From NCBI GenBank assembly GCA_031291995.1, contig JARLHZ010000004.1:5272-69271 (forward strand): a stretch of DNA of 64,000 bases. Direction: 5' to 3'. The notes beneath the pieces were generated by a model. The model was given only the letters and a program-made list of their open reading frames with translations, made no database searches and was not told the origin of the DNA. Below are positions 23,711 through 24,173 of the stretch, one piece after another. Source of the stretch: Candidatus Doudnabacteria bacterium. GTDB taxonomy: Bacteria; Patescibacteriota; Doudnabacteria; UBA920. Position numbers and translations under genes: made by a program. How positions within the stretch are numbered: the first letter of the stretch is position 1; each line of letters opens with the position of its first letter.

Positions 23711-23744
23711 TATCAAATTACAAATTACAAATTTCAAATCAAAA
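23711..23744. repeat. left arm of the inverted repeat bracketing the four-helix-bundle gene
   Basis: atcaaattacaaattacaaatttcaaatcaaaa. Its reverse complement matches 24139-24173. Confidence 0.6.
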
Positions 23745-23748
23745 CCAA

Positions 23749-24123
23749 ATGACAAATGACAAAATATATGACCTGGAAGAAAGAACGGCTTTATTTTCAG
23801 AGGCGGTGATAGAATTCGCTAAATTGGTACCCCAAAATGCAATTACGACTAACCTAATCATCCAATTCGTCAAATCAGGCACTTCAATGGGGGCTAATTA
23901 CTGTGAAGCGGATGCGGCGGAATCCAGAAAAGACTTTGAACATAAAATGGGTATTTGTAAAAAAGAGGCCAAAGAAACCCGCTATTGGTTGCGAATAATA
24001 GCCAAGACTTGTCCGGAACTGAAGGATAAAGCTGAAATTTTGTGGAAAGAGTCGCATGAATTACTTCTTATTTTTTCGGCTATAATTAAAAATACAAAAA
24101 ACGGCGATCAAAAAACAGTTTGA
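23749..24123 (+). CDS. four-helix-bundle protein (23S rRNA intervening-sequence protein family)
   Basis: EAVIEFAKLVPQ...SGTSMGANYCEADAAESRKDFEHKMGICKKEAKETRYWLRII matches the TIGR02436-type pattern (S..AN..EA...S.KDF...A.KE..ET.YWL). Confidence 0.7.
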   Translation: MTNDKIYDLEERTALFSEAVIEFAKLVPQNAITTNLIIQFVKSGTSMGANYCEADAAESRKDFEHKMGICKKEAKETRYWLRIIAKTCPELKDKAEILWKESHELLLIFSAIIKNTKNGDQKTV

Positions 24124-24138
24124 CATTTAATATTTTAT

Positions 24139-24173
24139 TTTTGAATTGAAATTTGTAATTTGATATTTGAAAT
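24139..24173. repeat. right arm of the inverted repeat bracketing the four-helix-bundle gene
   Basis: ttttgaattgaaatttgtaatttgatatttgaaat. Confidence 0.6.

Follow-up and report, generated by a model that had tools for sequence, protein, structure and literature searches.

The window, i.e. the whole 64,000-nt stretch of DNA analysed here, is chromosomal and comes from a Candidatus Doudnabacteria (CPR) MAG. Among housekeeping genes (IleRS, RecO, UvrD, KsgA, RadA-like, RecG, AspRS and rml genes) it carries a cluster that, judging from the TrbL-like, PrgI, TraC-like, VirB4 and SLT-domain proteins encoded, is T4SS-like. The cluster runs in the following order: a TrbL-like gene (16171-19932), with a homologue matching PF19590; gene X (19964-21520); a 141-aa ORF; gene Y (22173-23696); a small four-helix-bundle (4HB) gene; the PrgI gene (24201-24653); a gene of the GxxExxY family; the TraC-like gene (25226-25909); the VirB4 gene (26033-27880); and the gene for a 1082-aa SLT-domain protein. 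The 4HB gene (S23p/23S_rRNA_IVP/TIGR02436; 23749-24123, forward strand) encodes 124 aa and fills the loop of a long hairpin. This position, directly after gene Y and before the PrgI gene, lies between two protein-coding genes and not in an rRNA gene helix; Rfam detects three tRNAs only in the window, and no rRNA operon.

Tandem heptamers form the arms of the hairpin

The 5' arm (23706-23749, forward strand) is made of tandem heptamers (ATCAAAT, TACAAAT, TACAAAT, TTCAAAT and so on) which run into the 4HB gene, the start codon itself being part of the array (ATGNCNAATG). The 3' arm (24134-24177, forward strand) carries the reverse-complement heptamers, with one unit fewer than its partner and several mismatches. 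An inverted-repeat search gives an arm length of 44 nt with 84% complementarity and a separation of 384 nt; the inverted arms described in the first-pass annotation are real, but they are not exact reverse complements. The repeat unit reads (A/T)(T)(A/T)CAAAT. With 2.05 matches to the ACAAATT pattern expected in the window, the 29 observed amount to a 14-fold enrichment. Both MFE and centroid folds pair the arms in a 511-nt context (z -2.6) and still do so in 1101 nt, and the arm-arm duplex reaches -47 kcal/mol compared with -21 in shuffles (z -6.7), so that the base-pairing proposed for the arms holds when they are folded in context. The 4HB gene is the only ORF of the cassette, which carries no transposase, and no target-site duplication is visible by eye at the arm ends.

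No obvious Shine-Dalgarno sequence precedes the 4HB gene, and a consensus scan for promoters and terminators across 23500-25400 gave nothing beyond shuffle expectation and no promoter-like site before the gene. That scan missed an extended -10 box (TGcTATAAT, 24183-24191, forward strand) because it has no -35 match. The box lies outside the cassette, 9 nt upstream of the PrgI ATG at 24201, and is conserved: TGnTAnAAT occurs at most 60 nt upstream of PrgI in 55 of 81 orthologous loci, compared with 3 of 220 other gene starts. The 4HB cassette therefore probably closes one transcription unit at its 3' end and immediately precedes the promoter of the next, and its earlier placing within a T4SS operon needs qualifying to that extent.

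The encoded protein belongs to the 23S rRNA intervening-sequence family

The ORF at 23749-24123 matches the PF05635 23S_rRNA_IVP profile with 47.6 bits (E 2e-12; curated cut-off 33.8) and the TIGR02436 four helix bundle profile with 67.5 bits (E 1e-18; cut-off 24), the latter match spanning profile positions 3-109 of 109. The assignment of the gene to the type found in 23S rRNA intervening sequences (IVSs), and its place in the loop of a long inverted repeat, stand. The nearest solved structure is 2RLD (chain A, E 2e-15), with residues 13-118 of the 4HB protein aligned to 15-120. Proteins of this family share the motif GxxRxxxSxxxNxxE (PMC3936711); read by eye in the translation, the window protein has S46-x3-N50-x2-E53 (TSMGANYCEA) with K42 at the motif R position, and its residue at the motif G position is not G. 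We infer from homology a four-helix-bundle fold and a pentameric torus. Among the window-type 4HB genes dN/dS is 0.05-0.19 in the pairs with estimable dS, 3 of the 8 pairs being saturated; by this measure the gene is under purifying selection and the protein therefore appears to be maintained, unlike the decaying Coxiella ORF discussed below. Two functional assignments were tried and set aside: anti-phage defence, as PADLOC gives no match for the 4HB genes or the GxxExxY gene, and carriage by a phage vector, as no relative turned up in IMG/VR.

A second cassette and gene-less hairpins in the window

The GxxExxY/PDDEXK_3 nuclease-family gene (24783-25181, forward strand; 132 aa; PF13366 E 5e-27, TIGR04256 E 1e-27) is the second hairpin-bracketed cassette of the window. 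Its 5' arm (24650-24694, forward strand) starts on the PrgI stop codon and its 3' arm (25186-25227, forward strand) ends on the TraC-like ATG (25226). The inverted repeat is 30 nt at 93%, and in MFE and centroid folds the arms form a stem of about 40 bp whose outer ends coincide exactly with the PrgI stop codon and the TraC-like start codon.

Hairpins of the CAAAT heptamer family that contain no gene lie on the forward strand in the TraC-like gene/VirB4 spacer (25913-26041; z -4.1) and between VirB4 and the SLT-domain protein gene (27879-28036), and a further intergenic hairpin of the same heptamer family is found at 10094-10203. The arms of the 4HB gene do belong, as had been noted, to a family of intergenic hairpins. 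Gene-less heptamer hairpins are also present at IleRS/RecO, UvrD/KsgA, KsgA/DUF192 and the rml genes. A second 4HB gene, of the canonical subfamily (51703-52059, reverse strand), has scpA on one side and a YbaK-like tRNA_edit gene on the other; a CATGCTT-type heptamer array flanks its 3' side (about 51667-51702), and the 5' partner of this array is weak, with an IR score of 11.5 (the IR score takes the 90 nt on either side of a gene and gives their best complementarity in an ungapped comparison).

Arm family follows gene clade in unrelated contexts

Relatives of the window 4HB gene, 55-76% identical overall, occur in unrelated contexts, and the nine examined beyond the metagenomic set all have arms in which CNAAT cores recur at 7-nt spacing, as do most of the metagenomic loci. 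Those with 63-64% identity come from Campbellbacteria (in a pilM/pilO operon), Moranbacteria, Gracilibacteria and Berkelbacteria, in unrelated contexts and all with heptamer inverted-repeat arms. Among the metagenomic loci (55-68% identity) the IR score is at least 12 in 57 of 77, and 60 of 77 beat all 20 shuffles. The genes are mostly co-oriented with their neighbours, upstream in 67 of 72 loci and downstream in 52 of 60. One close relative sits inside a tRNA gene cluster; an rRNA location of the close relatives was considered and rejected, none of 80 being located in rRNA, and the window has no rRNA operon.

The arms are always heptamer-periodic (lag-7 identity 0.43 and 0.41 in the two arms, compared with 0.24 inside genes), and the heptamers fall into several families: CAAAT, TACGAAT, ATGCGAA, TTAAGGA, TTTTCAA, CGGAT and TTAGCAT. 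In the 82 loci whose arms have a CNAAT core in common, successive copies of the core are 7 nt apart in 115 of 243 intervals upstream and, as reverse complement, in 111 of 231 downstream; inside the gene no interval has this spacing. Heptamer slippage makes alignment of the arms ambiguous, and self-versus-cross arm pairing was used in place of column-wise covariation. The median match of an arm is 16.5 with its own partner and 7.5 with arms taken from other cassettes; those of the CAAAT clade are mutually interchangeable, and no pair-specific covariation is seen in that clade. The arm family follows the clade of the enclosed gene: CAAAT arms characterise the window clade (63-76% identity), locus L007 in its unrelated context included, and TTTTCAA arms the L041/L049 clade (87-92% identity). 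In L041 a second copy of the cassette lies at another junction, an intragenomic duplication in which the arms were carried along.

The architecture extends to plasmids. Among 13 non-rRNA plasmid 4HB loci, mostly cyanobacterial, inverted heptamer arrays bracket the gene in 9, as in Trichormus plasmid C, where it lies beside VirB10 in a T4SS operon, in a Picosynechococcus plasmid, where it lies between cmr2 and cmr3, and in an N. edaphicum plasmid, with GGGAACA x5 in the inverted arrays. Two of the 13 have one-sided or mismatched arrays, and two (Pseudanabaena cas6/cas4 and Gemmatirosa) have direct arrays on both sides; because these are direct and not inverted, a stem cannot be an essential feature there. 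In a small sample of plasmid GxxExxY genes from other phyla (n=5), one has a clear heptamer inverted repeat, one a short inverted repeat, two direct repeats and one none.

Occupancy and turnover at the junctions of orthologous clusters

An alignment of PrgI, scanned over one genome per GTDB species, recovered 80 clusters, all with the core order TrbL-X-Y-PrgI-TraC-like-VirB4. Spacer lengths in these clusters are trimodal, with tight (<50 nt), medium (55-300 nt) and long (340-590 nt) classes. Tight spacers are the state of most of the distant species, and nearly each long spacer corresponds to one small gene, either PF05635 4HB or PF13366 GxxExxY. Occupancy by these two families is patchy at four junctions (X/Y, Y/PrgI, PrgI/TraC-like and TraC-like/VirB4), and all intact cassettes of the T4SS-like clusters are co-oriented with the operon.

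The 4HB genes of the clusters divide into a window-type subfamily and a canonical one, the latter with weak matches to bAvd (PF22296). At the Y/PrgI junction 11 of 73 clusters have a 4HB gene, of which 8 are window-type (the window, L003, L004, L011, L021, L040, L041 and L049) and 3 canonical (L012, L018 and L030, each with different arms). Vertical inheritance of the window-type gene at this junction extends across species that share no more than 50-65% identity in PrgI, and its conservation equals that of the core genes; such retention would be expected of a gene domesticated for the benefit of the host as much as of a selfish one.

The bracket is selective. An IR score of at least 12 is reached by 12 of 12 4HB and 9 of 14 GxxExxY genes, versus 2 of 81 PrgI and 11 of 78 TraC-like genes, and no bracket surrounds the other small spacer genes, i.e. 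PemK/MazF, NYN, the 141-aa ORF (s141) and three unannotated ORFs. Since both the core genes and these other small genes are unbracketed, the hairpin bracket is a property of two unrelated protein families, 4HB and GxxExxY, and not of small genes or of this operon; an integron-like platform accepting any small gene was rejected on the same six unbracketed genes.

Several spacers hold a decayed gene inside retained arms. At TraC-like/VirB4, L011 has a frameshifted GxxExxY gene, L012 and L037 have 4HB genes with internal stops, and the 280-nt spacer of L049 contains a truncated 4HB gene; at PrgI/TraC-like, L028 has a GxxExxY gene with internal stops; and the 'empty' hairpin of L033 at Y/PrgI still codes for the N-terminal remnant of a GxxExxY protein. 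Of the medium spacers, 34 of 65 fold at z < -3, many of them as heptamer-periodic hairpins, and L013 has an empty hairpin and a GxxExxY-filled one with the same arm sequence. Comparison of the clusters shows the cassette unit turning over at these junctions through gain or swap, duplication, pseudogenisation and truncation.

Empty and filled hairpin sites are thus present both in the window and in the orthologous clusters, but among them no recent pair of filled and empty alleles was found; L003/L004 at X/Y was considered as a clean pair of this kind and discarded, the flanking X genes being different and the L004 spacer unrelated. No recombinase or transposase is associated with the cassettes. 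It is their phylogenetic patchiness that suggests mobility, and the first-pass proposal of a mobile cassette is favoured indirectly, by patchy junctions, subfamily swap, the L041 duplication, unrelated contexts and decay intermediates.

Discussion

We consider it probable, at roughly two chances in three, that the feature is an IVS-type, hairpin-bracketed selfish cassette residing in an mRNA spacer instead of an rRNA gene. The unit consists of the 5' arm, the small gene and the 3' arm, the heptamer arrays forming an imperfect stem of about 40 bp, and cassettes with a 4HB or a GxxExxY (PD-(D/E)XK) gene would make up a population that colonises, swaps and decays at CPR gene junctions, including four in a conserved chromosomal T4SS-like cluster. 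The cassette may have no promoter of its own and be transcribed by read-through from the upstream gene. By analogy with the rRNA IVSs, its long stem might then be cut by RNase III, freeing the cassette RNA; such a cut would explain why insertions are tolerable where the transcript can be cut harmlessly, i.e. at gene junctions, in rRNA helices and in tRNA clusters. The 4HB protein would be made and would act for the element, in its maintenance, its spread or the handling of its repeats, and loss of the gene would leave gene-less heptamer hairpins like those of the other spacers, which may at least partly be decayed cassettes. These could also be an independent feature of the host, as only some of them show remnants.

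The resemblance between the window cassette and the 23S rRNA IVSs of Coxiella burnetii, Leptospira and Azospirillum L195 supports the comparison drawn in the first-pass annotation, and extends to several features: (i) an inverted-repeat stem of about 28-44 bp, which in the Coxiella IVS consists of 28-bp terminal inverted repeats around an S23p ORF (PMC4990558). (ii) Tandem heptamers that abut the start codon; in Coxiella three GACAGAT copies in tandem closely precede the ATG, and RNase III cleaves at the first of them (PMC4990558). (iii) A PF05635 ORF that fills a loop of about 380-400 nt. In Azospirillum L195 a plasmid-borne 23S rRNA gene (Rfam LSU, 438 bits) has an ORF homologous to the 4HB gene inside it, and the arms of this IVS, made of CAGAGGA/CGGATGA heptamers, are 36 nt long, 86% complementary and 397 nt apart, values close to those of the window cassette. 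However, there are also differences: the window cassette and its close relatives lie outside rRNA, the window cassette being flanked by protein-coding genes; the window ORF is under purifying selection, whereas that of Coxiella is reported as decaying and untranslated; and RNase III cleavage is a feature of the Coxiella IVS that would hold for the window cassette by analogy.

Other repetitive elements share part of this picture. Like MITEs and IS, the cassettes have inverted termini, a patchy distribution, intragenomic duplication and decaying copies, and gene-less derivatives sharing their arms occur alongside them in a genome; in contrast to MITEs and IS, the cassettes show neither transposase nor target-site duplication, and their arms belong to many heptamer families instead of a conserved TIR and are internally tandem-repetitive. 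The cyanobacterial STRR, the Xanthomonas GGGAATC pairs and the Beggiatoa TAACTGA repeats are likewise intergenic tandem heptamers. Such heptamers have been described just upstream of start codons (PMC4679880) and, in Xanthomonas, often as convergent inverted pairs, 70-75 in number (PMC4692102), but they are mostly gene-less and have been described without a link to an enclosed 4HB or GxxExxY gene. Arrays of this sort flank the 4HB genes of the cyanobacterial plasmids.

The reading that competes best with the selfish cassette, although we regard it as unlikely, supposes that heptamer hairpins pre-exist in the host as REP-like elements (RNA stabilisers, processing sites or terminators) and that 4HB and GxxExxY genes insert into their loops. 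Gene-less heptamer hairpins are indeed common between the housekeeping genes of the window and among the strongly folding medium spacers of the orthologous clusters, and L013 combines an empty and a filled hairpin with identical arms in one genome. A pre-existing target is nevertheless disfavoured because the arms track the gene: the arm family follows the gene clade across genomes and contexts, and at the same junction a gene of the other 4HB subfamily comes with other arms (L012 compared with the window). Moreover, the 4HB gene fills its loop with almost no loop remnant, and some of the empty hairpins hold gene remnants. The clade-tracking arms and the start codon inside the array make the arms look like part of the unit more than a target that was there before, and the data do not favour the suggestion in the first-pass annotation that the cassette targets hairpin loops.

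Less likely again is domestication of the 4HB gene by the T4SS-like cluster in an accessory or regulatory role, with its hairpin serving as terminator, attenuator or mRNA stabiliser before the PrgI promoter. The gene is kept at the same junction under strong purifying selection in the window, L003, L011, L021, L040, L041 and L049, a conserved promoter lies just downstream of it, and Trichormus plasmid C provides another 4HB gene within a T4SS operon. Against this, about 85% of the orthologous clusters have no 4HB gene and three genomes have the other subfamily at the same junction, 55-76% identical relatives lie between pilus, tRNA, CRISPR and housekeeping genes, and the hairpin bracket goes with the gene and not with the operon boundary. 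Because it occupies 11 of 73 Y/PrgI junctions, varies at three other junctions and has relatives in unrelated contexts, we do not take the 4HB gene to be a T4SS component.

Finally, we find it very improbable that the inverted repeat arose by chance from low-complexity flanks, in spite of its A+T-rich and repetitive arms, or that the gene is an orphan DGR Avd, in spite of belonging to the four-helix-bundle superfamily of bAvd: shuffle and cross-pair controls reject chance, the weak PF22296 matches are confined to canonical 4HB genes of other loci and the window gene has none in the profile search, the scanned neighbours of the window and related loci include no reverse transcriptase, and around the cassette (23400-24500) there is one weak 22-nt, two-copy direct repeat and no TR/VR-like pair.

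Part of what is described here is already published, namely 4HB ORFs in IVS stems and the Coxiella heptamers as cited above, 23S_rRNA_IVP genes inside cas operons (PMC3936711) and 23S_rRNA_IVP genes in CPR rRNA insertions (10.1101/2024.02.27.582315). In the literature searched we found no account of 4HB or GxxExxY genes outside rRNA that are bracketed by an IVS-like heptamer hairpin, none of a recurrent turnover of these genes at fixed junctions of a conserved operon, and no description of the conserved CNAAT heptamer core. A wider and more speculative reading, which we hold to be improbable as it stands, would make 4HB and GxxExxY genes the cores of a single phylum-spanning class of elements with two tandem-heptamer arrays as the cis-part; the proteins would bind, make or move these arrays, and IVSs, CPR hairpins, STRR and GGGAATC pairs would be filled or decayed copies. 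A possible intermediate for such a class is an RNase III-released RNA with panhandle ends.

To our knowledge, the rRNA IVSs and their S23p ORFs, although known since about 1990, have no accepted origin, mobility mechanism or protein function, and we know of no explanation for the heptamer repeats of cyanobacteria and Xanthomonas either. The gene-in-heptamer-hairpin unit is now seen also across CPR, where it occupies mRNA operon spacers and a tRNA cluster, and on plasmids of cyanobacteria. A single conserved operon offers a comparative handle on it, with dozens of junctions that are filled, swapped, decaying or empty. The cassettes are concrete substrates for the questions of RNase III processing and of whether 4HB proteins bind heptamer arrays. 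In annotation, a 4HB or GxxExxY gene in a T4SS, CRISPR or pilus operon should not be taken for a component of that system.

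Organization of the T4SS-like cluster

The region upstream of PrgI carries an extended -10 box, TGnTAnAAT, in 55/81 clusters (24183-24191 in the window), and the distance from the end of this box to the PrgI start codon is mostly 4–12 nt. This implies that the PrgI transcript would be leaderless or near-leaderless, and that a conserved operon boundary would lie within what had been read as the "T4SS operon". Downstream of PrgI, the VirB4 ATPase is split over two ORFs: a TraC-like/TrsD-like N-terminal part of 227 aa (25226-25909) and the ATPase part of 615 aa (26033-27880). This two-ORF arrangement is found in almost all the orthologous clusters that reach that far, with a hairpin or a cassette often separating the two halves.

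In some genomes, further small genes fill the spacers of the cluster (3605-4003 in L041 and 4111-4620 in L026, both loci with an orthologous cluster; 21583-22008 in the window and 3548-3955 in L026): PemK/MazF toxin-like genes, NYN nuclease-like genes and a conserved 135–141-aa ORF without a Pfam match. The hairpin bracket is absent from all of them.

ORFs X (19964-21520) and Y (22173-23696), which lie between TrbL and PrgI, are both poorly conserved. Each contains a heptamer run (21041-21068 in X and 22385-22412 in Y) of the same ACAAATT type as the cassette arms, translated as the peptide ITNNK(L/F)QI(P/S)NG. Both ORFs also contain QQTADSGQ-type stretches, which resemble CAGCAGA-type heptamers. 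The coding sequence of X and Y seems to have absorbed repeat arrays.

Repeats and four-helix-bundle genes in other settings

Gene-less heptamer hairpins from families other than that of the main cassette (TACGAAN, TTAGGAA/TTCCTAA and TTGACAAGA) lie between housekeeping genes elsewhere in the window (2077-2159, 33441-33647, 58982-59067, 60878-60934 and 61659-61733), at the IleRS–RecO spacer, the rml genes and the region 5' of a RadA-like gene. Hence heptamer hairpins are an intergenic feature of the whole genome. Distinct from them is a near-perfect 40-nt palindrome with a NotI core, TTGGTAGACAAAACGTGCGGCCGCACGTTTTGTCTACCAA, whose three copies (14480-14520, 15325-15364 and 15732-15771) flank a 177-aa gene (14718-15251) matching PaaX_M/Cas2-like domains.

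The second four-helix-bundle (4HB) gene of the window, of the canonical subfamily (51703-52059, minus strand), is wedged in with a YbaK-like editing-domain gene on one side and scpA on the other, at gaps of 15 nt. On its 3' side lies a CATGCTT-type heptamer array (about 51667-51702). The first ATG in the called scpA ORF overlaps with this array, and the real start of scpA is therefore probably 51666.

At the related locus L104, a window-type 4HB cassette (703-1071) lies inside a tRNA gene cluster (tRNAs at 1-56, 187-258, 327-398 and 1130-1200 of region 1-1200), which is another transcript normally cut into pieces. On the Pseudanabaena galeata plasmid pPg_01 (L192, 240-820), a 4HB gene lies between cas6 and cas4, flanked by long heptamer arrays that are direct instead of inverted; the upstream array holds roughly 12 copies of GCTAAAA, the downstream array roughly 10 of GCCAAAA. 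The constant feature is the heptamer arrays and not the stem.
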